Of a stretch of DNA of 64,000 nucleotides, positions 3,372 to 63,837 are shown in pieces; within the stretch, counting starts at the first letter, position 1; every line of letters starts with the position of its first letter. A model generated the notes under the pieces. That model had not been told where the DNA came from and searched no databases. It worked only from the letters and a program-made list of their open reading frames with translations. This DNA is from Candidatus Binatia bacterium (lineage in GTDB: Bacteria; Desulfobacterota; Binatia; UBA9968; JAJDTQ01), in the NCBI GenBank assembly GCA_963666515.2, contig OY762897.2, forward strand, positions 2,784,001 to 2,848,000, read 5' to 3'. The translations under genes and the position numbers were made by a program.

Positions 3372-5499
3372 GAGCGCCACGAGGCGTTCTTGAACCTTGC
3401 GGTGGTGAGAGACCACCGCCGTCAGCCTGTCGCAGCAGGCTGAATGAAGCTGAGGGCAGCCCGACCCGAGGGACATCGGCAAGGGTGGAAGCAGCCCTGA
3501 CAACGACGGGACGCGCCAGCACTGTCAGATGGCGTGGGTCCGGCAAGCGAGACGGAAAGGTGTACGCGAGGAACCAGCGGCGGAAAGCCCCTAAAGCGCG
3601 AACCACCAGCTCCAACCTGACAGATAAGGGCTGGGTTGCAACGCACACCCGACGGGTCTGGCCGGTCGGGGAACTCCTGGGCTGGTAGATGTCGCCAGCA
3701 GGGAGGCCATGGTGAAGGACTGCGGCGTAGCCGTGGCGAAGTTGCAGGGGCATAGCTGGGCACCGACCCCGTTGAAGGGTTCGAGAGTGAACGTGGGAAC
3801 CACTCCGTTGGTCCCTGCCAACTTGGTGGGGAAGACCTGTCGCCGGTTGATGTCGGCGGAGTGGGGCGGAGGACCCGTAGTAGTCTGGGCACGGGAAAGC
3901 CGTGTACATGGCGAAGGGGTCCAGTGTGCTCACGGCTTCAACGCAAAACGAGGAGGACGCTGGTGAATACCGGTGCTTCATGGCTTGGTCCGATCGAGGC
4001 TGAGTCACGAGTACTTGCGATGCAGACGAAGCTGAACCGTTGGGCGGCAGCCGATCCCGGCCGTCGCTTCGATGACCTGTACAACCTCGTCTATGATCCG
4101 GCGTTTCTCGTTACGGCGTGGCGTCGGGTGCGGGGAAACAAGGGCGCACGAACCGCTGGCGTCGATGGAGTAGCACCGCGGTCCATCGGCTCCGGTACGA
4201 AGACACTGCTGGCTGGGTTGAGAGAAATACTCAAGGCCCGCCGGTTTGTGCCGCAACGGGTGCGGGAGAAGACGATCCCGAAGGCGGGCGACAAAGTCCG
4301 CTCGCTGGGTATTCCGACGACCGCAGACCGGGTCGTGCAAGCTTCCTTGAAGCTGGTGCTCGAGCCTATCTTCGAGGCGGACTTCAAGCCGTGTTCCTAT
4401 GGCTTCCGTCCGAAGCGCCGTGCAAAGGACGCCATCGCCGAGATTCACTACCTCGCCTCACCAACCCGGAATTATCACTGGGTCTTCGAGGCGGACATCA
4501 AGGCGTGCTTCGATGAGATCGACCACACGGGCCGGATGGAACGGGTGCGACATCGAATCGCGGACAAGCGTATCCTGAGCTTGGTCAAGGCGTTTCTCAA
4601 GGCCGGCGTCCTCTGTGAGGACCAAACCAGCCGCGAAACGATCACCGGCACTCCCCAAGGCGGAATCCTCTCACCGCTACTCGCCAACATCGCCTTGTCC
4701 ATCCTGGACGAGCACTTTACCCGGAGGTGGGATTCCCTCGGTCCGTCATGGACCCGCATCAAGCGTCGTCGCGCCGGAGAACCGGTGATGCGGCTCGTCC
4801 GCTATGCGGATGACTTCGTGGTCCTGGTCCACGGGACCCGACAAGACGCCGAAGCGCTCTGGAATGAGGTGACGGCGGTTCTCGCTCCGATCAGTCTACG
4901 GCTGTCGGAAGAGAAAACGAGAGTCTGTCACGTAGACGAGGGGTTCGACTTCCTCGGCTGGCGTATCCAGCGCCGGAACCGCAGGGGGCAACATGGCAGG
5001 AAGGCTATCTACACCTACCCGTCGAAAAAGGCGCTTGTCTCGATCATCGGGAGGGTCCGCAAGCTGACCCGCCGTGCATCTCATCGAACGCTTGCAGCCC
5101 TGTTGCGCCGGCTCAACCCGGTGTTGCGAGGCTGGTGCAACTATTTCCGGCACGGGGTGTCGTCACGGACGTTCAACTACGTCGACCATTTCGCCTTCTG
5201 GCGTATCGTCGGCTGGCTCCGGAAACGACATCTCGGGCTGAGCATGCATACCTTGGTGAGACGCTTTCTTCCTGGCTGGACGATTCGTGAAGGCGGTGTC
5301 AAGCTGCTTCGCCCGTCCAAAATTGCCGTTGAACGCTATCGGTTCCGGGGCAACCGGATCCCAACACCTTGGCCAAGCACTCCGACGGCATGAGCACATG
5401 GAGAGCCGGATGCGGTGAGAGTCGCACGTCCGGTTCGGAGGGCGGGCCGGAGAAACCCATCGCTCGAAAGACGACAGGGCGCTCCCGTCCGACCCCTAC
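3372..5499 (+). mobile_element. Group II intron (ribozyme plus RT/maturase ORF)
   Basis: Interrupts the WCADI|TY codons. 5' end GAGCG. EBS1 GATGTCG in a hairpin loop (3688-3694) is complementary to exon CGACATC. Domain V GAGCCGGATGCGGTGAGAGTCGCACGTCCGGTTC near 5403; domain VI ends ...CCCTAC. Confidence 0.9.
3963..5393 (+). CDS. ltrA: Group II intron reverse transcriptase/maturase (no En domain)
   Basis: GARTAGVDG, LGIPTTADRVVQ, SYGFRP, EADIKACFD, GTPQGGILSPLLANI, RYADDF, FDFLG, and maturase LNPVLRGWCNYF. GTG start at 3963 follows AGGAGG. Confidence 0.95.
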   Translation: MNTGASWLGPIEAESRVLAMQTKLNRWAAADPGRRFDDLYNLVYDPAFLVTAWRRVRGNKGARTAGVDGVAPRSIGSGTKTLLAGLREILKARRFVPQRVREKTIPKAGDKVRSLGIPTTADRVVQASLKLVLEPIFEADFKPCSYGFRPKRRAKDAIAEIHYLASPTRNYHWVFEADIKACFDEIDHTGRMERVRHRIADKRILSLVKAFLKAGVLCEDQTSRETITGTPQGGILSPLLANIALSILDEHFTRRWDSLGPSWTRIKRRRAGEPVMRLVRYADDFVVLVHGTRQDAEALWNEVTAVLAPISLRLSEEKTRVCHVDEGFDFLGWRIQRRNRRGQHGRKAIYTYPSKKALVSIIGRVRKLTRRASHRTLAALLRRLNPVLRGWCNYFRHGVSSRTFNYVDHFAFWRIVGWLRKRHLGLSMHTLVRRFLPGWTIREGGVKLLRPSKIAVERYRFRGNRIPTPWPSTPTA

Positions 5500-26981: not shown

Positions 26982-27032
26982 GAGACTATCCTTTCCACGC
27001 CTGCCCAAGTCAGTGGCACTGGCTCTCTATAA

Positions 27033-37650: not shown

Positions 37651-37651
37651 C

Positions 37652-38431: not shown

Positions 38432-38511
38432 CGTTCAGACGTCTGCCAAGTCCGACGGGCTGCGGTAGAGGCCGGAGGCCGCTTCTCTCACGGCCTCCGA
38501 CCCTGCGCGCT

Positions 38512-38820: not shown

Positions 38821-38963
38821 GCCTCTCCCTTCCACGCCCTGCGTTCCGGCGGGCGCAAATTCAAGAACTCCCTAGTTCAATACGCGTGTTTCACGAAATT
38901 GTAAAGAACAAAGGCGGCGAACACGGCTCCTTTACGCCGGCAAGCCGCCCGGCCGCGCCCTCC

Positions 38964-40433: not shown

Positions 40434-40597
40434 GGCATCCCCTCCTGTGCTGTGGAAATGGGCAGCAATTCGCGAGACTTTAGAATGAGTTACCGGCGAA
40501 AGTCAACCACGGCGCCGGGACCGGTGAGAGACCCCTTGCGAGAGGGAAGGGGTTCACGTATTCTCTGACCACACGCTCACGCAACCGACCCTCGACC

Positions 40598-41275: not shown

Positions 41276-41403
41276 CGTCCCGTCCTGCGTCACATCAGCT
41301 CCGACTCGTGGAACTATGCCCGGCTCCCGGGTGAGGTGGTCCACATCCACACCTTCACGCCCAGGTTCGAGTTCTGCATGACCGTCCCGGGTAGATTTTT
41401 ATT

Positions 41404-41428: not shown

Positions 41429-41459
41429 ACTCACCCAGGTTGTTTGATCGTTGAGCTCG

Positions 41460-44400
41460 ATGAGGCTACGGGTGCCAACCAACACGCATCAACCATACGA
41501 TCACCTCTCGGGCCGTGGGCCGGCGGGAGTCCGTGCGGAGCATGCAGCGTCCGCTTTTCGCCGGAGCCGCGGACTGAGTACGGCGGCGCTCCTCGTCCTC
41601 GTCCTGCTGCTGGCCGCAGGGGCCGCTTCGGCCCGGGAGCCGACCGAGCCGGCGGCCGAGACGCTCACCGCCGGCAGCATCGAGGCGACCACCGCGACCC
41701 TGACAATCTCCAACCACAGCGGCGACTGGTACTACCAATACGCCGCGCCCACCGGCGGCACGTGCTCGTCCGCGGTGACCACGACCTCGACCACGGTGTC
41801 GGACCTGAGCGCCAACACCAGCTACACCTTCAAGGCCTACAGTGACAGTTCGTGCAAAACCGAACTGGCGGCCGCGGCGGCGTTCCCGACCCTGCCGCCC
41901 AAGCCGTCGACGCCCGCGACCACAGCGGGCACGGACGACGGCACGCTGATTCTGTCCTCCTCGGTGACCGGCAGCGCACCGCTGACCAAGTGGCAGTACC
42001 GGCAGAAGGCGGGCGCCGGCAAGTACGGCGCCTGGACGGACGTCTCCAGCACCTCGACGAGCCTCAGCCACCTGCTCACCGGCCTGACCGACGGCGCCGA
42101 CTACCGGTTCAAGGTGCGCGCGGTGAACGCCTCGGGCGCCGGCGCGGCGTCGGACGCCTCTGTGGTGACGCCCGAATCGGACGAGGTGACGGTGGCCGCG
42201 GCGCCGGGCACGCCGACGAAGCCGGGCGCATATTCGTACAACGCCGCAGTGGGTCTGTCCAGCCAGACCAGCGACGGCGGCGCGTGGATCACCAGGTGGC
42301 AGTACCGGTACAAGTCCAAGCCTGCCGGCGGGAGCTACGGCAATTACAGCGGCTGGATCAACGTGCAGCTAACGGGTAGTCGGTTTGGCCTATACTTGAC
42401 AGGCCTGACCAACGGCACGGAGTACACGTTCAAGGTGCGCGCGGTGAACGCGGACGGCGCCGGCCCGGAATCGCCGGAGTCGTACCCGGTGAAGCCAGGC
42501 TACCCGGTGGCGCCGCCCAAGCCAACCGCCGCCGCCGCCAACGCCAGCGTCTCGCTGGGCACTTTCGTTCGCTACGACGGCGGCTTTTCGATCATCAGGT
42601 GGCAATACCAATACAAGTCCAAGCCTGCGGGCGGGAACTACGGCAATTACGGCAACTGGGTCAACGTGCAGCAAGCGGGGAGGCGTATGCAGACGACCGT
42701 GTCGAGCCTGACCAACGGCACGGAGTACACGTTCAAGGTGCGCGCGGTGAACGCGAACGGCAACGGTTACGAATCTCCGGAGTCGGATGCGGTGACGCCC
42801 ACCGCAGTGGTAACGCTGGTCTGCAACCGCACCGCGCAGGTGCGCACCGCGATCATCGCAGCGGTTTCGGGCAGATCGACCTGCGGGGCCATCACGGCCA
42901 CGGACCTGGCGGGGATTACCGGCGAGTTGAACTTGGAAAGCAAGGGCATCGCCTCCTTGAAGGCTGGTGACTTCGAGGGCCTGACCAGCGTGACGACGCT
43001 GGATCTGAGTGATAACGATCTACCCAGCCTGCCTGCAGGCATATTCGACCAGCTGACCAGCCTGACGCGACTGGAGCTGAAGCGTACCGGTCTGAACCAG
43101 CTGCGCGCGGGCGTATTCGACCAGCTGAGCAACCTGACGCGCCTTGAGCTGGGTGCATACGGTGGGGACTCCGACAACGGAAACCCTCTGACCAGCCTGC
43201 CTGCAGGCGTGTTCGACCGGCTGAGCAACCTGACGCGCCTGGGTCTGCAGGGGAACGATCTGACCAGCCTGCCTGTGGGCGTGTTCGACCAGTTGACCAA
43301 CCTGACGAATCTGCTCCTGAGCTTCAACGATCTGACCAGTCTGCCTGTGGGCGTGTTCGACCGGCTGACCAACCTGACGAATCTGTTTCTGAGCAACAAC
43401 GATCTGACCAGTCTGCCTGTGGGCGTGTTCGACCAGTTGACCAGCCTGACGTATCTGAATCTGAGCAACAACGATCTGACCAGTCTGCCTGTGGGCGTGT
43501 TCGACCAGCTGACCAACCTGACGAGTCTGGGTCTGCGCAACAACGATCTGACCAGCCTGCCTGCAGGCGTGTTCGACAAGCTGACCAGCCTGACGTATCT
43601 GAGTCTGTATGCCAACGATCTGACCAGCCTGCCTGCAGGCGTGTTCGACAAGCTGACCAACCTGCCGCTTCTGTATCTGGGCAACAACGATCTGACCAGC
43701 CTGCCTGCAGGCGTGTTCGACAAGCTGACCAGCCTGACGACCCTAGACCTAGGGCACAACGATCTGACCAGCCTGCCTGCGGGCGTGTTCGACAAGCTGA
43801 CCAACCTGACGAATCTGTTTCTGAGTGGCACCAGCCTGACCTGCTTGCCCGGCATTCCCACCTCAGTGACGACGCTGTTCTTGCAAAAGGCCGAGAGCAC
43901 CTACGCCGCCTGCGGCGGCGCGGTGACGGTGAGCAAGTCCAGCCTGACGGTGTTGCCGACTGCCACGGCGACCTACACCGTCGTGCTGGACGCGGAGCCG
44001 AACCGTTACGCCAACAGCGGCACCGTCACCGTGACGCCCGCGAGCAGCGACACGAGCAAGGCCACGGTGTCGGGCGCGCTCACCTTCACCTCCGGCAACT
44101 GGAGCACGCCGCAGACGGTCACCGTCACCGGCAAGGCCGTGGGCTCGGCGACGATTTCGCACACCGTCAGCGACACCGGCGGCTACGACGACGCCACCGC
44201 CCCCAACGTGGCGGCGACGGTGGCCGGCAAGGTGCTGACGGCGTCGTCCATCACCACGAGCGGGGCGACGCTGACCATCGCCGGCCACACGGGCAACTGG
44301 TACTACCAGTACACCGCGCCCACCGGCGGCACCTGCTCGTCGACGGCGGTCACCGGGAACTCCACCACGGTGTCGGACCTCACCGCGAACACCTCCTACA

Positions 44401-47400
44401 CCTTCAAGGCGTACTCGGACGCCGGCTGCGCCACGGAACTCGTCGCCGCGGACGCGTTCCCGACGCTGCCGCCCAAGCCGGCGAAGCCCACGGCCACGGC
44501 GGGCGCGGGCAGCGGCACCCTGACCCTGGCCTCATCGGTGACCGGCACGGCGGCGCTGACCCAGTGGCAGTACAAGCAGAAGGAAGGCACCGGCAACTAC
44601 GATGCGGACTGGACCGACATCGACAGCACCTCGACGAGCCTGAGTTACACCCTGACCGGGCTGACCAACGGCACCAATTACCAGTACAAGGTGCGCGCGA
44701 AGAACGCGTCCGGCAACAGCGCGGACTCGGACGCCTCCACCGCGGCCCAGCCGGGGGCCGTGACCCTGACCGCCGGCTCGGTGGAGGCGGCCACCGCGAC
44801 GCTGACCCTCGGCAACTGGACCGGCAACTGGTGGCTGAAGCGCACGACGCCGGCGGACACCACCTGCAAGTCCAAGGGCACGACCGCGACCGAGGACCTG
44901 ACGACCCTGTCGTCCAACACCAGCTACACCTACACGGCCTACAGCGACAGTACCTGCGCGACCGAACTGGCGAGCGAAACCTTCCTCACCAAGCCGGGCA
45001 AGCCGACCACGCCGCAGGCCGCGTCGGGCGCCGGCAGCGGCACGCTGGTCGTCTCCGCGTCGGTAACCGGCAGCGGCACGATCGCCAAGTGGCAGTACAA
45101 GCAGAAGGAAGGCGCCGGCAACTTCGATGCGGACTGGACCGACATTGACAGCACCGCGACCGTGCTGAGCCACACCCTCACCGGGCTGACCAACGGCACC
45201 GACTACCAGTACAAGGTGCGCGCGGAGAACGCCTCGGGTGCCGGCGCGGACTCGGACGCCTCCACCGCGGCCCAGCCGGGGGCCGTGACCCTGACCGCCG
45301 GCTCGGTGGAGGCGGCCACCGCGACGCTGACCCTCGGCAACTGGACCGGCAACTGGTGGCTGAAGCGCACGACGCCCGCGGACACCACCTGCAAGTCCAA
45401 GGGCACGACCGCGACCGAAGACCTGACGACCCTGTCGACCAACACCAGCTACACCTACACCGCCTACGGCGACAGTACCTGCGCTACCCAACTGACGAGC
45501 GAGACCTTCCTGACCAAGCCGGGCAAGCCGACCAAGCCCACGGCCACGGCCGGCGCGGGCAGCGGCAAGCTGACCCTGTCGGCCTCGGTGAGCGGCGACG
45601 GCGCGCTCACCAAGTGGCAGTACAAGCAGAAGGAGGGCGCCGGCAACTACGACGCCGACTGGACCGACGTCTCCGGCACCTCGACGAGCCTGACCCACGT
45701 GATCAGCGGGCTGACCGACGGCACCAACTACCAGTACAAGGTGCGCGCGGAGAACGCCTCGGGCGCCGGCGCGGACTCGGACGCCTCCACCGCGGCCCAG
45801 CCGGGGGACAAGACGCTGAAGGCGAGCGCGGTGGAGGCGACCACCGCGACCCTGACCCTCGGCAACCACGCCGGCAACTGGTGGCTGAAGCGCACGACGC
45901 CGGCGGACACCACCTGCAAGTCCAAGGGCACGACCGCGACCGAGTCCCTGACGACCCTGTCGTCCAACACCAGCTACACCTACAAGGCCTACAGCAACAG
46001 CACCTGCGCGACCGAACTGGCGACCGCGATCTTCCTGACCAAGCCGGGCAAGCCCACCAAGCCCACCGCCGCGGCGGGCGCGGGCAGCGGCGCCCTGACC
46101 CTGTCGGCCTCGGTGACCGGCAACGGCACGCCGACCAAGTGGCAGTACCAGCAGAAGGAGGGCATCGGCGGCTACGGCGCCTGGAAGGACATCGTGTCCA
46201 CCTCGACCTCGCTGAGCCACGTGGTCAGGGAGCTGACCGACGGCACCAACTACCAGTTCAAGGTGCGCGCGGAGAACGCCACCGGCGCCGGCGCCGAGTC
46301 GGACGCCTCGGATGCGGCGACGCCGACGGACGAGACCCTGACCGCGTCGTCCATCACCGCCACCGGGGCGACCCTGACCATCGGCAGCTACACGGGGAGT
46401 TGGTACTACCAGTACACCGCGCCCACCGGCGGCACGTGCTCCTCGGAAATCACCGGGACCTCCGCCACGGTGTCGGACCTCACCGCGAACACCTCCTACA
46501 CCTTCAAGGCCTATAGCGACTACACGTGCACGACCGAACTGGCCGCGGCGTCGGCGTTCACGACGCTGCCGCCCAAACCCGCCAAGCCCACGGTCACCGC
46601 GGGCACGGTTGCCGACACGCTGGTCCTGGCATCCTCGGTGACCGGCACCGCGGCGCTGGTCAAGTGGCAGTACAAGCAGAAGGCAGGCACCGGCAACTTC
46701 GATACGGACTGGACCGACATCTCGTCCACCTCGAAGAGCCTGAGCCACACGGTGACCGGCCTGACCAGCGGCACCAACTACCAGTACAAGGTGCGCGCGG
46801 AGAACGCCTCGGGCTCCGGCGCCGAGTCGGACGCCTCCACCGCGGTGCAGCCGCCGGACGAGACCCTGACCGCCAGCTCGGTGGCGGCGACCACCGCGAC
46901 CCTGACCCTCGGCAAGCACAGCGGCAACTGGTGGCTGAAGCGCACGACGCCCGCGGACACCAACTGCAAGTCCAAGGGCACGACCGCGACCGAGGACCTG
47001 ACCAGCCTGTCGACCAACACCAGCTACACCTACAAGGCCTACGGCAACAATACCTGCACGACCGAACTGGCGAGCGAGACGTTCCTGACCAAGCCGGGCA
47101 AGCCCACCACGCCCACGGCCACCGCGGGCGCGGGCAGCGGGAAGCTGACCCTGGCGGCCTCGGTGACCGGCGGCGGCACGCTCACCAAGTGGCAGTACAA
47201 GCAGAAGGAAGGCACCAACAACTACGACGACGACTGGACCGACATCAACAGCACCTCGACGAGCCTGAGCTACACGGTGACCGGGCTGACCGACGGCACC
47301 AACTACCAGTACAAGGTGCGCGCGGAGAACGCCACGGGCACCGGCGCGACGTCGGACGCCTCGGTGGCGGCGCAGCCCCTGGACGAGACCCTGACCGCGA

Positions 47401-50400
47401 GTTCGGTGGAGGCGACCACCGCGACCCTGACCATCGGCAACTATACGGGGAACTGGTACTACCAGTACACGTCCCCGAGCGGCGGCACCTGCTCCACCAG
47501 CGCGGTGACCACCCCGGCGGTAGACCTGGATGACCTGTCGTCCAACACCAGCTACACCTACAAGGCCTACGGCAACGATACCTGCGCGACCGAACTGGCG
47601 AGCGAGACGTTCCTGACCAAGCCGGGCAAGCCCACCAAGCCCACGGCCACGGCCGGCGCCGGCAGCGGCAAGCTGACCCTCACCGCGTCGGTGACGGGCA
47701 GCGGCACGCTGACGAAGTGGCAGTACAAGCAGAAGGAAGGCACCGGCAACTTCGACGACGACTGGACGGATATCGACAGCACCTCGACGAACCTGAGTTA
47801 CACCCTGACCGGGCTTACCGACGACACCGACTACCAGTACAAGGTGCGCGCGAGGAACGCCACCGGCGCCGGCGCCGAGTCGGACGCCTCCACCGCGGCG
47901 CAACCGACCGACGAGACCCTGACCGCGAGCAACGTGGAGGCGACCACCGCCACCCTGACCCTCGGCAACTACGCCGGCAACTGGTGGCTGAAGCGCACGA
48001 CGCCGGCGGACACCAACTGCAAGTCCAAGGGCACGACCGCAACCGAGGACCTGTCGGACCTGTCGTCCAACACCAGCTACACCTACAAGGCCTACAGCGA
48101 CAGTTCGTGCGCGAACGAACTGGTGCCGGCGACGCTGTTGACCAAGCCGGGCAAGCCCACCAAGCCCACGGCCACGGCCGGCAGCGGCAGCGGCAGGCTG
48201 ACCCTCGCCGCGTCGGTGACCGGCAGCGGCACGCTCATCAAGTGGCAGTACAAGCAGAAGAAAGGCGCCGGCAACTTCGACGCCGACTGGACCGACATCG
48301 ACAGCACCTCGACGAACCTGAGTTACACCCTGACCGGGCTGACCGACGGCGCCGACTACCAGTACAAGGTGCGCGCGGAGAACGCCACCGGGGCCGGCGC
48401 CGAGTCGGATGCCTCCACCGCGGCCCAGCCCCTGGACGAGACCCTGACCGCGTCGTCCATCACGACGAGCGGGGCGACCCTGACCATCGGCAACCATCCG
48501 GGGAGTTGGTACTACAAGCAGACCGCGCCGACGACCGGGGACTGCTCCACGGAAATCACCGGGACCTCCACCACGGTGTCGGACCTGACCGCGAACACCT
48601 CGTACACCTTCAAGGCGTATAGCGACACCGGTTGCGAGACGGAACTGGCCGCGGCGTCGGCGTTCCCGACCCTGCCGCCCAAGCCGTCCAAACCCACCGC
48701 GACGGCCGGGGTGGGCAGCGGCAAGCTGACCCTGACCGCCTCGGTGACCGGCACCGCGACGCTGACCAGGTGGCAGTACAAGCAGAAGAAAGACAATGGC
48801 AACTACGGGTCCTGGCAGGATATCTCCGGCACCTCGACGAGCCTGAGCCACGTGCTCAGCGGCCTGACCAACAGCAGCGCCTACCAGTACAAGGTGCGCG
48901 CGGAGAACGCCTCGGGCGCCGGCGCCGAGTCGGACGCCTCGGTGGCGGCGAAGCCGGGCACGGTGCCGAAGATGGGGACGCCGACGCTGACCGGCGGCAA
49001 CAAGCGGATTTCGGTGAGCTGGACCCACCCGACCGGGGTGACCGGGCTGCAGGCCTACCGCATCCGCTATCGCAAGAAGGGGACCAGCACGTGGACCTAC
49101 GCCGACGCCAGGTCCGACAACGGCCACCAGAATTACTACGCGAACCAGACCAGCGCCACGCTTCCCGCCCATGAAGACTTCACGATGCAGGACGGCACGA
49201 CCTACCAGGTCGAAATACGGGCCGGCAAGTGGAACGACGGCTATTCGGGCTGGGGCGCGTGGTCCGACACGGCCGAGGCGCTGACGACGAAGCTGACCGC
49301 GAGCGACGTGGAGGCGACCACCGCGACCCTGACCCTCACCGGCCATTCGGGGAACTGGTACTACAAGTACACGTCCCCGAGCGGCGGCACCTGCTCCACC
49401 AGCGCGGTGACCACCCCGGCGAAGGACCTGGCGGATCTGTCGTCCAACACCAGCTACACCTACAAGGCCTACAGTGACTCCGGCTGTAGCAGCAACAAGG
49501 AACTGGCGACCGCGCCGGCGTTCCTGACCAAGCCGGGCAAGCCCACCAAGCCCACGGCCACGGCCGGAGCGGGCAGCGGCAAGCTGACCCTGGCGGCCTC
49601 AGTGACCGGCAGCGGCACGCTCGCCAAGTGGCAGTACAAGCAGAAGAAAGGCAGCGGCAACTACGACGACGACTGGACCGACATCGACAGCACCTCGACG
49701 AACCTGAGTTACACCCTGACCGGCCTGACCGACGGCACCAACTACCAGTACAAGGTGCGCGCCAGGAACGCCACCGGCGCCGGCGCGACGTCGGACGCCT
49801 CCACCGCGGCACAGCCGACCGACGAGACCCTGACCGCCAGCTCGGTGGAGGCGGCCACCGCCACCCTGACCCTCGGCAACTACACGGGCAACTGGTGGCT
49901 GAAGCGCACCACGCCGGCGGACACCACCTGCAAGTCCAAGGGCACGACCGCGACCGAGGACCTGACGACCCTGTCGTCCAACACCAGCTACACCTACAAG
50001 GCCTACAGCGACGATACCTGCGCGACCGAACTGAAAAGCGCGACTTTCCTGACCAAGCCGGGCAAGCCCACCAAGCCCACGGCCACGGCCGGGGCCGGCA
50101 GCGGCAAGCTGACCCTGGCCGCCTCGGTGACCGGCAGCGGCACGCTCGCCAAGTGGCAGTACAAGCAGAAGAAAGGCGGCGGCAACTACGACGACGACTG
50201 GACCGACATCAACAGCACTTCGACGAGCCTGAGTTACACCCTGACCGGCCTGACCGACGGCACCAACTACCAGTACAAGGTGCGCGCCAGGAACGCCACC
50301 GGCGCCGGCGCCGAGTCGGACACCTCCACCGCGGCCCAGCCCCTGGACGAGACCCTGACCGCCAGCTCGGTGGAGGCGGCCACCGCGACCCTGACCCTCG

Positions 50401-53400
50401 GCAACTACACGGGCAACTGGTGGCTGAAGCGCACCACGCCGGCGGACACCACCTGCAAGTCCAAGGGCACGACCGCGACCGAGGACCTGACGACCCTGTC
50501 GTCCAACACCAGCTACACCTACAAGGCCTACAGCAACGATACCTGCGCGACCGAACTGAAAAGCGCGACGTTCCTGACCAAGCCGGGCAAGCCCACCAAG
50601 CCCACGGCGACGGCCGGCGCGGGCAGCGGCAAGCTGACCCTGGCCGCCTCGGTGACCGGCAGCGGCACGCTCGCCAAGTGGCAGTACAAGCAGAAGAAAG
50701 GCAGCGGCAACTACGATGACGACTGGACCGACATCAACAGCACTTCGACGAGCCTGAGCCACGTGGTCACCGGCCTGACCGACGGCACCAACTACCAGTA
50801 CAAGGTGCGCGCGAGGAACGCCACCGGCGCCGGCGCAACGTCGGACGCCTCCACCGCGGCCCAGCCCCTGGACGAGACCCTGACCGCCAGCTCGGTGGAG
50901 GCGGCCACCGCCACCCTGACCCTCGGCAACTACACGGGCAACTGGTGGCTGAAGCGCACGACGCCGGCGGACACCACCTGCAAGTCCAAGGGCACGACCG
51001 CGACCGAGGACCTGACGACCCTGTCCTCCAACACCAGCTACACCTTCAAGGCCTACAGCGACGATACCTGCGCGACCGAACTGAAAAGCGCGACGTTCCT
51101 GACCAAGCCGGGCAAGCCCACCAAGCCCACGGCCACGGCCGGCGCGGGCAGCGGCAAGCTGACCCTCGCCGCCTCGGTGACCGGCAGCGGCACGCTCGCC
51201 AAGTGGCAGTACAAGCAGAAGAAAGGCGGCGGCAACTACGATGACGACTGGACCGACATCAACAGCACCTCGACGAACCTGAGTTACACCCTGACCGGCC
51301 TGACCGACGGCACCAACTACCAGTACAAGGTGCGCGCGAGGAACGCCACCGGCGCCGGCGCAACGTCGGACGCCTCCACCGCGGCCCAGCCCCTGGACGA
51401 GACCCTGACCGCCAGCTCGGTGGAGGCGGCCACCGCCACCCTGACCCTCGGCAACTACACGGGCAACTGGTGGCTGAAGCGCACGACGCCGGCGGACACC
51501 ACCTGCAAGTCCAAGGGCACGACCGCGACCGAGGACCTGACGACCCTGTCGTCCAACACCAGCTACACCTTCAAGGCCTACAGCGACGATACCTGCGCGA
51601 CCGAACTGAAAAGCGCGACGTTCCTGACCAAGCCGGGCAAGCCCACCAAGCCCACGGCCACGGCCGGCGCGGGCAGCGGCAAGCTGACCCTCGCCGCCTC
51701 GGTGACCGGCAGCGGCACGCTCGCCAAGTGGCAGTACAAGCAGAAGAAAGGCGGCGGCAACTACGATGACGACTGGACCGACATCAACAGCACCTCGACG
51801 AACCTGAGTTACACCCTGACCGGCCTGACCGACGGCACCAACTACCAGTACAAGGTGCGCGCCAGGAACGCCACCGGCGCCGGCGCCGAGTCGGACGCCT
51901 CCACCGCGGCCCAGCCCCTGGACGAGACCCTGACCGCCAGCTCGGTGGAGGCGGCCACCGCCACCCTGACCCTCGGCAACTACACGGGCAACTGGTGGCT
52001 GAAGCGCACGACGCCGGCGGACACCACCTGCAAGTCCAAGGGCACGACCGCGACCGAGGACCTGACGACCCTGTCCTCCAACACCAGCTACACCTTCAAG
52101 GCCTACAGCGACAGTAACTGCGCGACCGAGCTGCTGGCGAGCGAGACGTTCCTGACCAAGCCGGGCAAGCCCACCAAGCCCACGGCGACCAGCGGCGCGG
52201 GCAGCGGCAAGCTGACCCTCGCCGCCTCGGTGACCGGCAGCGGCACGCTGAAGAAGTGGCAGTACAAGCAGAAGGAAGGCGGCGGCAACTTCGACGACGA
52301 CTGGACCGACATCGACAGCACCTCGACGAGCCTGAGTTACACCCTCACCGGCCTGACCGACGGCACTGACTACCAGTACAAGGTGCGCGCGGAGAACGCC
52401 ACGGGCGCCGGCGCGACGTCGGACGCCTCAGTGGCGGCGCAGCCGGCGAACGAGACCCTGACCGCCAGCTCGGTGGCGGCGACCACCGCGACCTTGACCA
52501 TCGGCAACTACACGGGGAACTGGTGGCTGAAGCGCACGACGCCGGCGGACACCAACTGCAAGTCCAAGGGCACGACCGCCACCGAGGACCTGACGACCCT
52601 GTCGTCCAACACCAGCTACACCTACAAGGCCTACAGCAACAGTACCTGCGCGACCGAACTGGCGAGCGAGACCTTCCTGACCAAGCCGGGCAAGCCCACC
52701 AAGCCCACGGCGACCAGCGGCGCCGGCAGCGGCAAGCTGACCCTCGCCGCCTCGGTGACCGGCAGCGGCACGCTCGCGAAGTGGCAGTACAAGCAGAAGA
52801 AAGGCGGCGGCAACTTCGACGACGACTGGACCGACATCAACAGCACCTCGACCTCGCTGAGCCACACGATCACCGGACTGACCGACGGCGCCGACTACCA
52901 GTACAAGGTGCGCGCGGAGAACACCACCGGCGCCGGCGCCGAGTCGGACGCCTCCACCGCGGCCCAGCCCCTGGACGAGACCCTGACCGCGAGTTCGGTG
53001 GCGGCGACCACCGCGACCCTGACCATCGGTAACTACGGCGGCGAGTGGTACTACAAGCACACGTCCCCGAGCAGCGGGTCCTGCTCCAGCAGCGCGGTGA
53101 CCACCTCGGCGGTGGACCTGGAGGACTTGTCGTCCAACACCAGCTACACCTACAAGGCCTACAGCAACAATACCTGCACGACCGAACTGGCGGCGGCGCC
53201 GGCGTTCCTGACCAAGCCGGGCAAGCCCACCAAGCCCACGGCCACGGCCGGCGCCGGCAGCGGCAAGCTGACCCTGGCCGCCTCGGTGACCGGCAGCGGC
53301 ACGCTCGCCAAGTGGCAGTACAAGCAGAAGAAAGGCAGCGGCAACTTCGACGACGACTGGACCGACATCTCGTCCACCTCGACCTCGTTGAGCCACACGA

Positions 53401-56400
53401 TCACCGGCCTGACCGACGGCGCCGACTACCAGTACAAGGTGCGCGCGAGGAACGCCACCGGCGCCGGCGCGGACTCGGACGCCTCCACCGCGGCGCAGCC
53501 ACTGGACGAGACCCTGACCGCCAGTTCGGTGGAGGCGGCCACCGCGACCCTGACCCTCGGCAACTACACGGGGAACTGGTGGCTGAAGCGCACGACGCCG
53601 GCGGACACCACCTGCAAGTCCAAGGGCACGACCGCCACCGAGGACCTGACGACCCTGTCGTCCAACACCAGCTACACCTACAAGGCCTACAGCGACGATA
53701 CCTGCGCGACCGAACTGGCGGCCGAGACCTTCCTGACCAAGCCGGGCAAGCCCACCAAGCCCACGGCCACGGCCGGCGCCGGCAGCGGCAAGCTGACCCT
53801 GGCGGCCTCGGTGACCGGCAGCGGCACGCTCGCGAAGTGGCAGTACAAGCAGAAGAAAGGCGGCGGCAACTTCGACGACGACTGGACCGACATCAACAGC
53901 ACTTCGACGAGCCTGAGTTACACCCTCACCGGGCTGACCGGCGGCGCCAACTACCAGTACAAAGTGCGCGCGGAGAACGCCACCGGCGCCGGCGCCGAGT
54001 CGGACGCCTCCGTGGCGGCGCAGCCGGCGAACGAAACCTTGACGGCGAGTTCGGTGGAGGCGGCCACCGCGACCCTGACCCTCGGCAACTACACGGGCAA
54101 CTGGTGGCTGAAGCGCACGACGCCGGCGGACACCAACTGCAAGTCCAAGGGCACGACCGCCACCGAGTCCCTGACGACCCTGTCATCCAACACCAGCTAC
54201 ACCTACAAGGCCTACAGCGACAATACCTGCGCGACCGAACTGGCGAGCGAGACCTTCCTGACCAAGCCGGGCAAGCCCACCAAGCCCACGGCGACCAGCG
54301 GCGCCGGCAGCGGCAAGCTGACCCTCGCCGCCTCGGTGACCGGCAACGGCACGCTCGCGAAGTGGCAGTACAAGCAGAAGAAAGGCGGCGGCAACTTCGA
54401 CGACGACTGGACCGACATCGACAGCACCTCGACGAACCTGAGCCACACCCTCACCGGGCTGACCGGCGGCACCAACTACCAGTACAAAGTGCGCGCGGAG
54501 AACGCCACCGGCGCCGGCGCCGAGTCGGACGCCTCCGTGGCGGCGCAGCCGGCGAACGAGACCCTGACGGCGAGCTCGGTGGAGGCGGCCACCGCGACCC
54601 TGACCCTCGGCAACTACACGGGCAACTGGTGGCTGAAGCGCACGACGCCGGCGGACACCAACTGCAAGTCCAAGGGCACGACCGCCACCGAGTCCCTGTC
54701 GGACCTGTCGTCCAACACCAGCTACACCTACAAGGCCTACAGCAACAATACCTGCGCGACCGAACTGGCGGCCGAGACCTTCCTGACCAAGCCGGGCAAG
54801 CCCACCAAGCCCACGGCGACCAGCGGCGCCGGCAGCGGCAAGCTGACCCTCGCCGCCTCGGTGACCGGCAGCGGCACGCTCGCGAAGTGGCAGTACAAGC
54901 AGAAGAAAGGCGGCGGCAACTTCGACGACGACTGGACCGACATCGACAGCACCTCGACGAACCTGAGCCACACCCTGACCGGGCTGACCGACGGCACCAA
55001 CTACCAGTACAAAGTGCGCGCGGAGAACGCCACCGGCGCCGGCGCCGAGTCGGACGCCTCCGTGGCGGCGCAGCCGGCGAACGAGACCCTGACCGCCAGC
55101 TCGGTGACGGCGACCACCGCGACCCTGACCCTCGGCAACTACACGGGCAACTGGTGGCTGAAGCGCACGACGCCGGCGGACACCAACTGCAAGTCCAAGG
55201 GCACGACCGCCACCGAGTCCCTGACGACCCTGTCGTCCAACACCAGCTACACCTACAAGGCCTACGGCAACAGTACCTGCGCGACCGAACTGGCGGCCGA
55301 GACCTTCCTGACCAAGCCGGGCAAGCCCACCAAGCCCACGGCCACGGCCGGGGCCGGCAGCGGCAAGCTGACCCTCGCCGCCTCGGTGACCGGCAGCAGC
55401 ACGCTGAAGAAGTGGCAGTACAAGCAGAAGAAAGGCGGCGGCAACTTCGACGACGACTGGACCGACATCAACAGCACCTCGACCTCGCTGAGCCACACGA
55501 TCACCGGACTGACCGACGGCGCCGACTACCAGTACAAGGTGCGCACGGAGAACGCCACCGGCGCCGGCGCCGAGTCGGACGCCTCCACCGCGGCCCAGCC
55601 AGGGGCCGTGACGCTGACGGCAAGTTCGGTGGAGGCGGCCATCGCGACCCTGACCATCGGCAAACACAGCGGCAACTGGTGGCTGAAGCGCACCACGCCG
55701 GCAGACACCAACTGCAAGTCCAAAGGCACGACCGCGACCGAGGACCTGACGACCCTGTCGTCCAACACCAACTACACCTACAAGGCCTACAGCAACAGTA
55801 CCTGCGCGACCGAACTGGCGGCCGAGACCTTCCTGACCAAGCCGGGCAAGCCCGCCAAGCCCACGGCGACCAGCGGCGCCGGCAGCGGCAAGCTGACCCT
55901 CGCCGCCTCGGTGACCGGCAGCGGCACGCTCGCGAAGTGGCAGTACAAGCAGAAGAAAGACGGCGGCAACTTCGACGACGACTGGACCGACATCAACAGC
56001 ACCTCGACCTCGTTGAGCCACACGATCACCGGCCTGACCGACGGCGCCGACTACCAGTACAAGGTGCGTGCGGAGAACGCCACCGGCAACGGCGCCGAGT
56101 CGGACGCCTCGGTGGCGGCGCAGCCGGCGAACGAGACCCTGACGGCGAGCTCGGTGGAGGCGGCCACCGCGACCCTGACCCTCGGCAACTACACGGGCAA
56201 CTGGTGGCTGAAGCGCACGACGCCGGCGGACACCAACTGCAAGTCCAAGGGCACGACCGCCACCGAGGACCTGTCGGACCTGTCGTCCAACACCAGCTAC
56301 ACCTACAAGGCCTACAGCAACAATACCTGCGCGACCGAACTGGCGGCCGAGACCTTCCTGACCAAGCCGGGCAAGCCCACCAAGCCCACGGCGACCAGCG

Positions 56401-59400
56401 GCGCCGGCAGCGGCAAGCTGACCCTCGCCGCCTCGGTGACCGGCAGCGGCACGCTCGCGAAGTGGCAGTACAAGCAGAAGAAAGGCGGCGGCAACTTCGA
56501 CGACGACTGGACCGACATCAACAGCACTTCGACGAACCTGAGTTACACCCTCACCGGGCTGACCGGCGGCACCAACTACCAGTACAAAGTGCGCGCGGAG
56601 AACGCCACCGGCGCCGGCGCCGAGTCGGACGCCTCAGTGGCGGCGCAGCCGGCAAACGAGACCCTGACGGCGAGCTCGGTGGAGGCGGCCACCGCGACCC
56701 TGACCCTCGGCAACTACACGGGCAACTGGTGGCTGAAGCGCACGACGCCGGCGGACACCAACTGCAAGTCCAAGGGCACGACCGCCACCGAGTCCCTGTC
56801 GGACCTGTCGTCCAACACCAGCTACACCTACAAGGCCTACAGCAACAATACCTGCGCGACCGAACTGGCGGCCGAGACCTTCCTGACCAAGCCGGGCAAG
56901 CCCACCAAGCCCACGGCGACCAGCGGCGCCGGCAGCGGCAAGCTGACCCTCGCCGCCTCGGTGACCGGCAGCGGCACGCTCGCGAAGTGGCAGTACAAGC
57001 AGAAGAAAGGCGGCGGCAACTTCGACGACGACTGGACCGACATCAACAGCACTTCGACGAACCTGAGTTACACCCTCACCGGGCTGACCGGCGGCGCCAA
57101 CTACCAGTACAAAGTGCGCGCGGAGAACGCCACCGGCGCCGGCGCCGAGTCGGACGCCTCGGTGGCGGCGCAGCCGGCAAACGAGACCCTGACGGCGAGC
57201 TCGGTGGAGGCGGCCACCGCGACCCTGACCCTCGGCAACTACACGGGCAACTGGTGGCTGAAGCGCACGACGCCGGCGGACACCAACTGCAAGTCCAAGG
57301 GCACGACCGCCACCGAGTCCCTGTCGGACCTGTCGTCCAACACCAGCTACACCTACAAGGCCTACAGCAACAATACCTGCGCGACCGAACTGGCGGCCGA
57401 GACCTTCCTGACCAAGCCGGGCAAGCCCACCAAGCCCACGGCGACCAGCGGCGCCGGCAGCGGCAAGCTGACCCTCGCCGCCTCGGTGACCGGCAGCGGC
57501 ACGCTCGCGAAGTGGCAGTACAAGCAGAAGAAAGGCGGCGGCAACTTCGACGACGACTGGACCGACATCTCGTCCACCTCGACCTCGTTGAGCCATACGA
57601 TCACCGGCCTGACCGACGGCGCCGACTACCAGTACAAGGTGCGCGCGGAGAACGCCACCGGCGCCGGCGCCGAGTCGGACGCCTCGGATGCAGAGCAGCC
57701 GTCCTCCGTCCTCAGGGGCTTCACGTTCTCGTCCACGGCCGTGACGGTGCCGGAGAAGTCGACGGCCACCTACACGGTGAAGCTGGCGACCAAGCCGACC
57801 GCGGACGTGACCGTCACCGTCGCGCGCAAGACCGGCAGCGGGCACGACACCGACCTGACGGTGGACACCGACATCGACACCCCCGGCAACCAGAGCACGC
57901 TGACCTTCACCACCACCAACTGGAACACGGCCCAGACCGTCACCCTGGCTGCGGCCGAGGACGCCGACATCGTGCACGGCACTGCGACCATCGGGCACAC
58001 CGCCACCGGCGGCGGCTATGCCAACGTGACCGGTGAGGTCGTGGCCACCGAGTTGGATGCTTCTGGGAACAGAGAGGAGACGCAGCAGCCGGTGACGCGG
58101 GAGCCGGAAGCGCCGTCGATGCCGACAGTGACGGCGAAGCACGAGAGCCTGGCGGTGTCCTGGACCGCGCCCCCAACGAACGGCTTCGCGATCACGGGCT
58201 ACGCCGTGCAGTACCGTGCATGCACGGCGACCGACAGGACCTGCGCGTCGAACCCGACCTGGGGCGACTGGACTTCGCTTACCCATACCGGGACCGCTAC
58301 GACGGCAACCATCGGCTCGCTGACCAACGGCACGGCCTACCAGGTGCATGTGAGGGCGAAGAGCGCAGCCGGTGACTCCGGCTGGTCCGCACCCGGGCAG
58401 GCGGTGCCGGAAGTGCAGGAGCCGGAGGCGCCGTCGATGCCGACGGTGACGGCGAAGCACGAGAGCTTGGCGGTGTCGTGGACCGCGCCCCCGACCAACG
58501 GCTCGGCGATCACCGGCTACGCCGTGCAGTACCGGGCATACACGGCGACCGGCAGAATCCGCGCGTCGAACTCGACCTGGGGCGACTGGACTTCGCTTAC
58601 CCATACCGGGACCGCTACGACGGCAACCATCGACTCGCTGACCAACGGCACGGCCTACCAGGTGCGGGTGAGGGCGGAGAGCGCGGCCGGCGACTCCCGC
58701 TGGTCCGCCTCCGGACAAGCGGTGCCGGAAGTGCAGGAGCCGGAGGCGCCGTCGATGCCGACGGTGACGGCGAAGCACGAGAGCCTGGCGGTGTCGTGGA
58801 CGGCGCCCCCGACCAACGGCTCGGCGATCACCGGCTACGCCGTGCAGTACCGGGCATACACGGCGACCGGCAGAATCCGCGCGTCGAACCCGACCTGGGG
58901 CGACTGGACGTCACTCACCCATACCGGGACCGCTACGACGGCAACCATCGGCTCGCTGACCAACGGCACGGCCTACCAGGTGCGGGTAAGGGCAGAGAGC
59001 GCGGCCGGCAACTCCCGCTGGTCCGCACCCGTACATGCGGTGCCGGAGGCGCAGGAGCCGGAGGCGCCGTCGATGCCGACGGTGACGGCGAAGCACGAGA
59101 GCCTGGCGGTGTCGTGGACGGCGCCCCCGACCAACGGCTCGGCGATCACCGGCTACGCCGTGCAGTACCGGGCATGCACGGCGACCGGCAGGATCTGCGC
59201 GTCGAACCCGACCTGGGGCGACTGGACGTCACTCACCCATACCGGGACCGCTACGACGGCAACCATCGGCTCGCTGACCAACGGCACGGCCTACCAGGTG
59301 CGGGTAAGGGCGGAGAGCGCGGCTGGCGACTCCGGCTGGTCCGCACCCAGACAGGCGGTACCGGAGGCGGTGAAGCTGACCGTAAGCGCGGTGGAGGCCA

Positions 59401-62777: not shown

Positions 62778-62798
62778 GGCTTCCCCTTCCGGCCTCGC

Positions 62799-63809: not shown

Positions 63810-63837
63810 CAATTCGTCTCGTAACGAGGAATCGAAC

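Follow-up and report, generated by a model that had tools for sequence, protein, structure and literature searches.

The variable lymphocyte receptors (VLRs) of lampreys and hagfish are built from LRRV modules with the 24-residue consensus xLxxLxLxxNxLxxLPxGVFDxLxx, with variability at the x positions of the concave face, as in the bacterial array described here, and their caps hold four Cys residues. Among bacteria, Altae-Tran et al. (2020, PMC10392669), who describe hypervariable cell-surface LRR proteins in Flavobacterium psychrophilum and other 'hypervariable repeat proteins', themselves liken such proteins to VLRs. In the accessible text of two papers on DGRs (PMC5006420; bioRxiv 10.1101/2024.11.15.621889), the known variable regions are C-terminal, adopt C-type-lectin folds and have a proximal template that is ~90% identical.

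We analysed a 64,000-nucleotide stretch of DNA (the window) from a Candidatus Binatia bacterium whose RpoB is near those of MAGs labelled 'Deltaproteobacteria bacterium' (92-93%) and 'Candidatus Binatia' (80%). A first-pass annotation of the window had described an LRR array displayed on a very long stalk and diversified either by repeat shuffling with positive selection or by adenine mutagenesis of the DGR kind. The array lies at aa 580-795 of a 6614-residue protein and amounts to 648 bp of LRR. The features are as follows.

41451..61295, + strand, giant ORF of 6614 aa that holds the LRR array in frame
42816..43019, + strand, LRR N-terminal cap (C458, C478; modelled as helical) together with the first irregular repeats, aa 456-523
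43020..43187, + strand, two older, more diverged LRR units, aa 524-579, with an 8-residue insertion in the second
43188..43835, + strand, nine near-identical 72-bp LRR units, aa 580-795, with hypervariable codons 17, 19, 21 and 22 (L-T-x-L-x-L-x-x-N)
43836..43916, + strand, LRR C-terminal cap, aa 796-822, with C798 and C821; an in-genome paralog has the same cap
43917..60050, + strand, stalk of one Big_2-like domain followed by ~60 FN3-like modules
60201..61292, + strand, predicted C-terminal outer-membrane beta-barrel, ~18 strands in the model, with autotransporter-like position and language-model features
3861..5499, + strand, group II intron RT/maturase and intron domain V-VI, separate from the LRR feature and the sole RT of the window

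The true start of the giant ORF is likely a few codons inside it, at the ATG of codon 4 or the GTG of codon 8, and a hydrophobic, signal-like stretch (...RRSRGLSTAALLVLVLLLAAGAASA) is contained in residues 37-61, as judged by sequence reading alone. The FN3 part of the stalk is made up of ~25 tandem two-module units of ~175 aa followed by four 106-aa FN3 repeats. The 'very long stalk' was thus described correctly, as the LRR domain is close to the N-terminal end of a very long series of FN3 modules, with the predicted outer-membrane beta-barrel at the opposite end. The ORFs flanking the giant gene (37496-38875, 38808-40568, 40577-41350 and 61443-63824) were searched for Pfam families at E<=1e-5 and none was found.

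When the C-terminal region was modelled from an 18-sequence alignment (pLDDT 75.2, pTM 0.70), it was all-beta from residue 51 with ~18 strands. Structural matches (VIA) were CdiB (Z 16.5), BcsC (15.2), EstA (13.9) and AIDA-I (13.1), with autotransporters at Z 12-14; the best of these matches are 16-strand barrels, compared with the ~18 strands modelled. PF03797 clusters made up 29 of 30 Atlas feature matches of the barrel (score 0.96). Comparison of the C-terminal 464 aa with Pfam and NCBIfam returned no family: PF03797 was not matched, and the sole match at E<=1 was a chance match to SPAN. Similarly, a profile of 18 barrel relatives had no match among PDB sequences. The barrel belongs to an uncharacterised family that is strongly expanded across this genus, and a C-terminal outer-membrane beta-barrel, as the model predicts here, is one feature of type Va autotransporters. 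We consider it probable that the segment encodes the LRR domain with which a giant surface adhesin, anchored in the outer membrane, would bind its ligand, and that it went through recent tandem amplification with diversifying selection. We infer surface display of the giant protein and, likewise, a ligand and a selective agent.

The LRR domain matched LRR_8 with E=2.3e-57 and 191 bits (cut-off 27), as a 'typical' bacterial surface LRR domain does. Its structure model (pLDDT 92.4, pTM 0.90) contains 13 LRR strands and one cap strand, and the best Foldseek match was 5a5c (1.7e-22, TM 0.63-0.76). Sites 1 and 2, the first two of the four hypervariable codons, are on the beta-strand of each repeat in the model, which supports the earlier prediction of a binding domain with its variation on concave-face positions. 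The same annotation had counted ~12 LRRs on a nearly invariant framework; the count is fair given the 13 modelled strands, whereas the framework is near-invariant in nine units only. Its Cys-containing caps are present, with two Cys each (C458/C478 and C798/C821), and the N-cap motif C-[ND]-R-T-x-Q-V-R-x-A-I ... C is common to many bacterial LRR proteins as well as to the in-genome paralog. Resemblance to VLRs is real at the level of the 24-residue LRRV-type consensus, which the units carry: phmmer matched VLRA 2o6q at E=4e-48 and VLRB 2o6s at E=2.9e-41, and lamprey VLRE was among the database matches (55% identity over 60% of the query). However, consensus-engineered LRRTM2 (the best solved match), designed LRRs, LRRC15, Leptospira LIC proteins and SHOC2 all scored above the VLRs, and the likeness is therefore to the class of 'typical' 24-residue LRRs rather than to VLRs specifically. 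The LRRNT and LRRCT caps (PF01462, PF01463) gave no match at E<=0.01. Thus the array differs from VLRs in its 2+2 Cys caps, helical N-cap and lack of LRRNT/LRRCT, and also in being part of a germline bacterial gene with no flanking cassettes or somatic assembly.

The near-identical units number nine, each exactly 72 bp long, and have their starts at aa 580, 604 ... 772 (window 43188-43835). Tandem Repeats Finder reported a period of 72 with 8.9 copies and 86% match, as well as 2.4 more diverged copies upstream. Variation is concentrated in four codons per repeat, as had been noticed: mismatches to the unit consensus occupied 45 of 108 cells (42%) in the variable codons and 30 of 540 (5.6%) in the framework. 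All 36 variable codons quoted in the earlier reading were correct when the array was re-read in frame, and its counts of pyrimidine endings (33/36) and of T endings at sites 1-2 (14/18) were reproduced. At the variable sites the consensus reads AAT, AGC and AAC. Mismatches to it fall mostly on the first two bases (20/36 for the first base, 16/36 for the second and 9/36 for the third), with the third kept to give NNT/NNC; at site 4 the codon is C-ending in 8/9 units.

The framework itself records the descent of the units. All 20 of its T-ending codons are in three columns, CCT in 9/9, GAT in 8/9 and AGT in 3/9 units, although in the rest of the gene CCT accounts for 2 of 240 Pro codons and GAT for 27 of 321 Asp codons. 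The rare CCT and GAT codons run through entire framework columns, which marks the nine 72-bp units as recent copies of a single unit. Framework variants are also block-structured, with P-V and Q or R in units 604-676 and P-A and K in units 700-772; of 60 framework nt, 1-3 differ within the first block and 2-8 within the second (2-4 without the degenerate terminal unit 772). The Nei-Gojobori method applied to the 36 unit pairs gave dN 1.19 for the variable codons against dS 0.14 and dN 0.074 for the framework, a contrast between units inside one gene that does not separate selection from gene conversion. Together with the block structure, these values favour repeat duplication with positive selection, one of the two origins proposed at the outset. 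We regard recent tandem amplification, with point mutation under diversifying selection on an adhesin LRR head, as the probable explanation of the array. A single 24-residue unit would have given rise to nine tandem copies so recently that they still have even rare synonymous codons in common. During or after amplification, amino-acid changes would have accumulated almost only at four solvent-exposed concave-face positions, through ordinary point mutation, with diversifying selection favouring a new or broader binding surface. In the ancestral unit, sites 1 and 2 probably carried T-ending codons (of the AAT, GAT or TAT kind), and sites 3 and 4 the C-ending AGC and AAC. Selected changes would then have struck the first two codon positions while the silent third base was passed on, with the NNY/NNT pattern as a by-product, and 'A positions' would predominate because the ancestral Asn and Ser codons are A-rich at positions 1 and 2.

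The T-ending codons had been noted as part of a DGR-like bias in a gene that is mostly G/C-ending. The description of the gene is accurate, as only 173 of 6247 codons (2.8%) outside the LRR domain end in T (AAT 12/260, TAT 11/269, TTT 3/71 and GGT 17/604). Given the amino acids, 0.7-1.5 T-ending codons were expected among the 18 codons of sites 1-2, and the probability of 14 or more was ~1e-13 to 1e-17 if codons are independent; they are not, because the units are copies of one another. Counted instead as columns, 4 of 24 per unit are T-ending (P=0.31 against the background of 8/68 in the domain's N-cap, P=0.004-0.05 against the gene or genome). The T bias therefore loses weight once shared descent is allowed for, and it is mostly inheritance. 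Early diverged repeats also carry A/T-ending codons at 7/12 variable sites, and descent is therefore only part of the story. Across 10 loci, of which nine belong to genus relatives and one is the in-genome paralog, 34 distinct LRR units (not independent of one another) had A/T-ending codons at 42/136 variable sites compared with 79/680 framework positions (Fisher p=1e-7). A/T endings at variable sites are thus a general tendency rather than the mark of a special mechanism. Two other sources of the T bias were considered and rejected. Neighbouring-codon context does not account for it, as genome-wide NNY codons before CTG are T-ending in 7-19% and CTG-NNN-CTG in 3.7%, and AID-like C-to-T deamination was set aside, since in most units the framework AAC and AGC codons, which have the same type of motif, still end in C.

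A counterpoint to selection on recent copies is that up to 11-12 of 12 variable nt have changed beside 2-8 framework differences; units 700 and 748, for example, differ at 2/60 framework nt and 11/12 variable nt. For point mutation and selection by themselves, variable codons this close to saturation are an extreme outcome. Concerted evolution would account for it if the units were old, with conversion homogenising the 54-nt framework and selection preserving old, diverged binding-face patches. The framework differs by just 1-9/60 nt, neighbouring units have framework variants in common, and units 628 and 772, which differ at 3/12 patch nt but are of different framework types from each other, could be a conversion mosaic. 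However, old patches would be expected to drift to G/C-ending usage (3-6% of codons in the genome are T-ending), whereas T was kept at sites 1-2 in 14/18 and C at site 4 in 8/9 cases. This retention of third bases indicates that the patches themselves share a recent ancestor. In addition, conversion tracts would need to end before reaching an 18-nt patch, once in every 72 nt. On balance, we consider concerted evolution an unlikely origin of the array and retain recent amplification under diversifying selection.

No orthologous array was found in another strain or species. A protein search of 41 genomes of the genus gave matches in 8, including the source genome; none of these was orthologous to the array, and the best relative had 60% identity over part of the domain. 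The best non-self match in a DNA search of 28 genomes was 68% identical. The genome itself holds a paralogous LRR gene with the same caps. Outside the genus, the nearest relatives of the domain are from MAGs of Poribacteria, Gemmatimonadota, Dehalococcoidia and Latescibacterota, and 374 giant proteins (3.6-11.6 thousand aa) matched the LRR part. The closest full-length, cap-bearing relatives come from lower-GC MAGs of other phyla, namely Poribacteria (53% and 49% identity, locus GC 48% and 44%) and Gemmatimonadota (45% identity, 56% GC), in which AAT, TAT and AGT are normal at variable sites. An LRR module acquired from a lower-GC donor, with T-ending codons that have yet to ameliorate, would fit these relatives and also the usage across the LRR domain, where 11-25% of codons are A/T-ending compared with 5.9% in the rest of the gene. 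This origin is compatible with the selection reading but is itself improbable. The framework is already ~86% G/C-ending, so that just two codon columns would need to have escaped amelioration. Raised A/T-ending use (12-16%) is also seen upstream of the LRR, in the FN3 modules of aa 251-450. Furthermore, the same-cap paralog and the cap-bearing LRR domains of genus relatives indicate that the LRR module is no newcomer to the lineage.

The other origin first proposed for the array was DGR adenine mutagenesis, in cis or in trans, in which an AAY template is reverse-transcribed with A-to-N errors and copied into the array. Its attraction is the codon pattern, with AAT, AGC and AAC as the consensus and the third base largely preserved, as in the DGR variable proteins Mtd, TvpA and AvpA, whose NNY codons keep the third base according to the available text of PMC5006420. 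The parts of a DGR are absent. The whole genome (98.35% complete, two contigs) has two RTs by PF00078, neither of the DGR type. One is a group II intron maturase with RVT_1 and GIIM (TIGR04416, 370 bits, cut-off 300) and an Intron_gpII RNA just downstream; the other is a Drt1a defence RT (PADLOC E=2e-207). The statement that the window has no DGR RT holds, as the RT at 3861-5393 is the group II intron type, but the presence of this RT had been overlooked. Avd (PF05635) had 0 matches in the genome and 0/6 candidates scored, whereas the Bacteroides thetaiotaomicron control gave a match. The search of the genome for framework copies or silent cassettes that had been suggested, run as blastn at word size 7, yielded only the array and the paralogous LRR gene at 67-82% identity. 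No template- or cassette-like copy was found in 27 other species of the genus, and framework DNA had 0 and 0 matches in JGI metagenome contigs (two IUPAC patterns) and 0 matches in viral contigs (one IUPAC pattern).

With the unit consensus as a stand-in for the template, framework A cells had changed no more than C cells (8/99 and 14/189, with G 7/153 and T 1/99), 6 of 11 framework A columns never varied, and 9/36 variable codons differed at the third, non-A base. The enrichment of framework variants at A positions that had been suggested is thus not seen. The array is also an LRR solenoid at aa 456-822 of 6614, not a C-terminal C-type-lectin or Ig-like fold, and no differences in the variable codons were reported within the contigs of four public sequencing runs. 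Compared with known DGR variable proteins, then, the locus lacks the DGR RT, template and Avd, has another fold at a non-C-terminal position and contains differences from the unit consensus at non-A bases. The first-pass annotation had named as refuting its proposal a genome without template, RT or cassettes, an invariant array and substitutions not enriched at A positions; we found no template, DGR-type RT or cassette in the genome, no variation in the covered array and no A enrichment. An origin by DGR adenine mutagenesis is almost certainly incorrect, and this reading is close to refuted.

The four runs represent at most three samples from one study and may include the genome's own source sample, and they were read as Logan contigs, from which rare variants are lost. 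Exact-match contig pieces (0 other letters) covered 7/9 variable patches in two to four of the four runs, at a depth like that of the flanks; the patches of units 604 and 628 had no cover by listed pieces, and bins 43311-43404 were uncovered in three of the four runs. In some contigs of the same runs, framework-like stretches of 21-41 nt are linked to variable patches that the genome does not contain, and one of these contigs had a depth of 30.3, close to that of the source organism in its run. Four inserts from the run contigs were sought in the genome and not found. These contigs raise the prospect of targeted or templated diversification other than by a DGR, either patch replacement from community LRR cassettes or local hypermutation. 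The extreme contrast in divergence between patch and framework would suit it, and the available text of PMC10392669 documents recombination-driven turnover of surface LRR genes in F. psychrophilum. However, the common stretches are just 21-41 nt at 90% likeness, and such stretches often come from other organisms or repeats; many other LRR genes occur in such communities. The genome has no cassettes, and wherever contigs cover the array, in up to three samples, its reading is unchanged. The array's 'skip' joints were not accepted as repeat-number variants, since their sides are only 21-41 letters at the 90% threshold. Diversification of this kind is very improbable, and that the array is the product of an undescribed non-DGR rewriting of LRR binding-face codons in a bacterial population is very improbable indeed. 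If it were so, symbionts would possess a VLR-like repertoire of surface receptors, and the contigs that join other patches would be alternative alleles.

Recent amplification under diversifying selection remains the reading that we favour, and it has consequences beyond this locus. It removes a tempting false lead, that of a bacterial 'antibody' made by a DGR. A reusable rule also emerges, namely that a codon bias counted over recently amplified repeat copies is pseudo-replicated; diversifying selection on inherited codons shows itself as a third base that stays while the first and second change. The LRR head carries a strong signal of adaptive change, and the giant gene is a good candidate for a host- or prey-binding adhesin in an uncultured lineage.

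Several known protein kinds resemble this one. Type Va autotransporters and internalin- or LIC-type LRR adhesins likewise have an N-terminal signal, a long passenger and a binding domain far from the barrel. In the internalin- and LIC-type adhesins the binding module is also an LRR solenoid, and the Foldseek matches included Leptospira LIC10831 and InlA. Type Va autotransporters differ in the barrel, which here has no PF03797 match and ~18 modelled strands, compared with the 12-strand barrel of that class. The giant protein also resembles the 'eukaryotic-like' proteins of sponge-symbiont MAGs in its domain make-up, since the available text of PMC12993501 describes LRR, FN3 and ankyrin proteins that include LRR and FN3 in large secreted proteins. 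The hypervariable LRR proteins of F. psychrophilum, as far as the available text of PMC10392669 describes them, share with our array a secreted or surface location, near-identical tandem LRR units, a few variable residues on one face of the solenoid and no DGR. They differ in having repeats of ~22 residues, a type 9 secretion signal and up to 19 tandem gene copies, at loci that are fragment-rich and recombine between strains. In contrast, the array described here is single, with 24-residue 'typical' repeats in one 6614-aa FN3 and barrel protein and no gene fragments or cassettes found. The array is an ordinary, predicted LRR binding domain and another case of a known kind of protein.

The LRR array is carried by a giant open reading frame, near whose N-terminus a signal-like hydrophobic stretch, RRSRGLSTAALLVLVLLLAAGAASA, can be read from the sequence.

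Features of the giant LRR gene
window 41451..61295, + strand: giant open reading frame of 6614 aa holding the LRR array
window 43188-43835, + strand: nine 72-bp units, starting at aa 580, 604 ... 772
window 60201-61292: C-terminal barrel, all-beta in a structure model

Four FN3 modules precede the LRR domain (aa 456-822; Pfam LRR_8, E=2.3e-57, 191 bits against a cut-off of 27), which is followed by a Big_2-like domain and then by a stalk of about 60 FN3-like modules, made up of about 25 tandem two-module units of about 175 aa and then four 106-aa repeats. The last ~365 residues gave no match in Pfam or NCBIfam, and PDB sequence profiles also missed this C-terminal region. A structure model based on the aligned sequences of 18 genus relatives predicted an all-beta barrel of about 18 strands (pLDDT 75.2, pTM 0.70), and comparison with outer-membrane barrels (Foldseek, VIA-align) gave Z values of 16.5 for CdiB, 15.2 for BcsC, 13.9 for EstA, 13.1 for AIDA-I and 12.7 for NalP. 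Of 30 ESM-Atlas feature matches, 29 were Autotransporter (PF03797) clusters. Classical autotransporters have 12 strands, in contrast to the ~18 modelled here, and the barrel may represent a family of anchors or translocators that is so far undescribed and typical of the lineage. This family had 10 matches in the organism's own genome and was matched in 22 of 24 genomes of the genus; the open frames that carry it reach 19,556 aa (in G006, one of the genus genomes). A C-terminal outer-membrane barrel combined with a long stalk would place the LRR domain at the distal end of a very long passenger, and given this topology, predicted by analogy with autotransporters, the earlier image of a head on a long stalk is a fair one. 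Two further giant ORFs, at window 14814-27008 and 27992-37324 (both - strand; 4064 and 3110 aa), carry the same C-terminal barrel domain, such that three of these giant genes lie side by side.

Each unit of the array contains four variable codons (codons 17, 19, 21 and 22, hereafter sites 1-4) within the motif L-T-x-L-x-L-x-x-N. The codons quoted for these sites in the first-pass annotation were exactly right in all nine units, with a pyrimidine as the third base in 33 of 36 and T as the third base in 14 of the 18 at sites 1-2. Mismatches to the unit consensus occupied 45 of 108 cells in the four variable codons, compared with 30 of 540 in the 20 framework codons. Outside of the LRR domain, T-ending codons make up only 2.8% of the gene (173/6247), with AAT accounting for 4.6% of Asn, TAT for 4.1% of Tyr, TTT for 4.2% of Phe and GGT for 2.8% of Gly. 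With amino acids fixed, 0.7-1.5 T-ending codons would be expected among the 18 at sites 1-2, and the probability of at least 14 is 1e-13 to 1e-17 if codons are assumed to be independent. Flanking CTG codons were ruled out as the cause of the T bias because CTG-NNN-CTG is only 3.7% T-ending genome-wide. We also observed that the Asn-Asp-Leu codons (aac gat ctg) contain GATC in eight of the nine units (window 43188-43835), the degenerate terminal unit 772 lacking it. The beta-strand face of an LRR domain is its concave binding face. In a model of the domain (pLDDT 92.4), the short beta-strand of each repeat carries sites 1-2, and sites 3-4 follow immediately, placing the four variable sites on the predicted binding face.

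A diversity-generating retroelement (DGR) had been proposed as one possible source of the codon bias. As described in two accounts (PMC5006420; bioRxiv 10.1101/2024.11.15.621889), a DGR requires a dedicated reverse transcriptase (RT) and a template repeat that shares about 90% identity with the variable region, usually with Avd, and known variable regions are C-type-lectin folds at protein C-termini. The whole genome (4.67 Mb, two contigs, 98.35% complete) contained two RT matches.

RT genes, intron ends and the paralogous LRR gene (C1, genome contig coordinates)
window 3861-5393: RT 1, ORF of 510 aa; RVT_1 and GIIM; TIGR04416, 370 bits (cut-off 300)
window 5401-5499: Rfam Intron_gpII domain V-VI, 62 bits, directly after the RT ORF
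window 6265-6340: second Intron_gpII match, 46 bits, ~770 bp beyond the first and without an RT ORF of its own
C1:2943506-2947421 (locus L002), - strand: RT 2, Drt1a defence RT, 1305 aa; PADLOC E=2e-207
C1:394936-396015 (locus L011): paralogous LRR domain, carried by a surface protein at least 1100 aa long

The RT within the window is a group II intron maturase, and the second Intron_gpII match may mark another intron end that has degenerated. The Drt1a gene, 100 kb past the window end, adjoins a type I restriction-modification methylase-like ORF, and the two look like a small defence island. Avd (PF05635) had no match in the genome. Except for the paralogous LRR gene (67-82% identity; blastn, word size 7), no copy of the 72-bp unit was found in the genome outside of the array. 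Its framework was not found in 27 other genus species (best identity 68%), and unit framework patterns gave 0 and 0 matches in JGI metagenome contigs and 0 in viral contigs. Framework variants did not favour A positions as had been claimed, since mismatches by consensus base were C 14/189, A 8/99, G 7/153 and T 1/99; 6 of 11 framework A columns were invariant, and a non-A third base differed in 9 of 36 variable codons. Among the variable codons, AAT, AGC and AAC form the consensus, and site 2 has none; with A in five of the six first and second positions of these codons, any replacement change would appear to be A-targeted.

Array stability was examined in contigs assembled from four public runs, representing at most three samples of one study. 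Seven of the nine variable patches were covered by contig pieces with 0 differences, and patch depths equalled those of the flanks (e.g. 14.6-23.5 versus 16.5-17.2 in run X1). The sole minor variant in the LRR domain, 42968 T>C (depth 2.35 of 36.3, one run), lies upstream of the nine-unit array. Because contigs drop rare variants, these data show a dominant stable allele rather than the absence of all variation. The absence of DGR parts from the genome, the lack of A preference and the stability of the covered patches are the findings that the first-pass annotation had itself named as counting against its proposal, and it is now hardly credible that the array is a DGR target.

Contigs of the same runs fuse 21-41-letter framework stretches (window 43008-43803) to other variable patches that are absent from the genome, one of them at a depth of 30.3, near the organism's own depth in that run. 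These contigs may come from other LRR genes, from other strains or from alternative alleles. Such unexplained contigs are the main ground for a targeted or templated mechanism other than a DGR, which we consider very improbable. Just downstream of the LRR domain, at window 44055, A>G was the majority letter in the contigs of three runs out of four and a large minority (9.3 of 25) in run X2; summed depths there are well beyond that of the organism itself, which probably reflects a stacking of similar modules from other genes or organisms at this position.

The silent bases of the framework bear on the origin of the NNT pattern. All 20 T-ending framework codons belong to three columns, namely CCT (9/9 units), GAT (8/9) and AGT (3/9), and CCT accounts for only 2 of 240 Pro codons elsewhere in the gene. 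Silent states as rare as these can be common to the units only through descent, and the units are recent copies; T at sites 1-2 and C at sites 3-4 are likewise inherited by descent. Framework variants are distributed blockwise, with P-V and Q or R in units 604-676 and P-A and K in units 700-772, indicating duplication history rather than scattered mutagenesis. When each ancestral unit is counted once, T-ending codons fill 4 of 24 columns (P=0.31 versus 8/68 in the domain's own N-cap; P=0.004-0.05 versus gene or genome usage), so that the figure of 14 of 18 is pseudo-replicated. Changes in the variable codons affected the first position in 20/36, the second in 16/36 and the third in 9/36. By the Nei-Gojobori method, variable-codon dN was 1.19 versus a framework dS of 0.14 and dN of 0.074, amino-acid change at the variable codons being about eight-fold above the silent background. 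We consider it fairly probable that one unit was recently amplified in tandem, that diversifying selection then acted on the four face codons and that the NNT pattern would be a by-product of inheritance. The binding head, the stalk, and duplication with selection are retained from the earlier interpretation, whereas its DGR component is not. The main alternative, that the patches are old and gene conversion has kept the frameworks identical, seems unlikely, since old patches would have lost the unusual silent base and T is still kept at sites 1-2.

Elevated use of A/T-ending codons at the variable sites is general in the LRRs of this genus. Among 34 distinct units from 10 loci (nine of them in genus relatives, the tenth being the in-genome paralog), such codons made up 42/136 at the four sites versus 79/680 in the framework (Fisher p=1e-7, with units that are not independent). 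Fast-changing codons would mirror AT-biased mutation input more than slow ones. A/T-ending codons constitute 11-25% of the whole LRR domain versus 5.9% of the rest of the gene. The composition of the module may be partly foreign; the relatives nearest to it over the full domain occur in MAGs from other phyla with lower GC.

The proposed likeness to variable lymphocyte receptors (VLRs) held at the level of the consensus (VLRA 2o6q, E=4e-48), and lamprey VLRE was among the database matches. However, non-VLR proteins matched better, the best being consensus-engineered LRRTM2 5a5c (E=1e-85; Foldseek 1.7e-22), and designed LRRs, LRRC15, Leptospira LIC proteins and SHOC2 also scored above the VLRs. 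The caps contain Cys, as the first-pass annotation had noted, with two in each, but unlike those of VLRs they are not LRRNT or LRRCT: neither had a Pfam match in the LRR domain, and the N-cap is helical. The N-cap motif is common to the matching bacterial proteins and the in-genome paralog. Matching database proteins comprised 1892 shorter and 374 giant ones, with identities of up to 60% and 57%, respectively, among the matches listed, and those with a named source were mostly bacterial or MAG-derived.

The paralog contains a signal peptide, two FN3 modules, an N-cap and C-cap as in the array protein (two Cys), and then FN3 and repeated ~100-aa modules. Its repeats are heterogeneous and its caps the same as those of the array, thereby showing the form that an unamplified version of the array takes. 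The organism's RpoB shares 92-93% identity with MAG proteins that carry the label 'Deltaproteobacteria bacterium' and 80% with 'Candidatus Binatia', and the LRR domain has its closest relatives in MAGs named as Poribacteria, Gemmatimonadota, Dehalococcoidia and Latescibacterota. One report counts LRR and FN3 domains among the 'eukaryotic-like proteins' of sponge-associated Latescibacterota MAGs (PMC12993501). The closest precedent for the array is the surface LRR proteins of Flavobacterium psychrophilum, which are reported to have near-identical repeats with a few hypervariable face residues and to undergo recombination-driven turnover, and which were likened to VLRs (PMC10392669).
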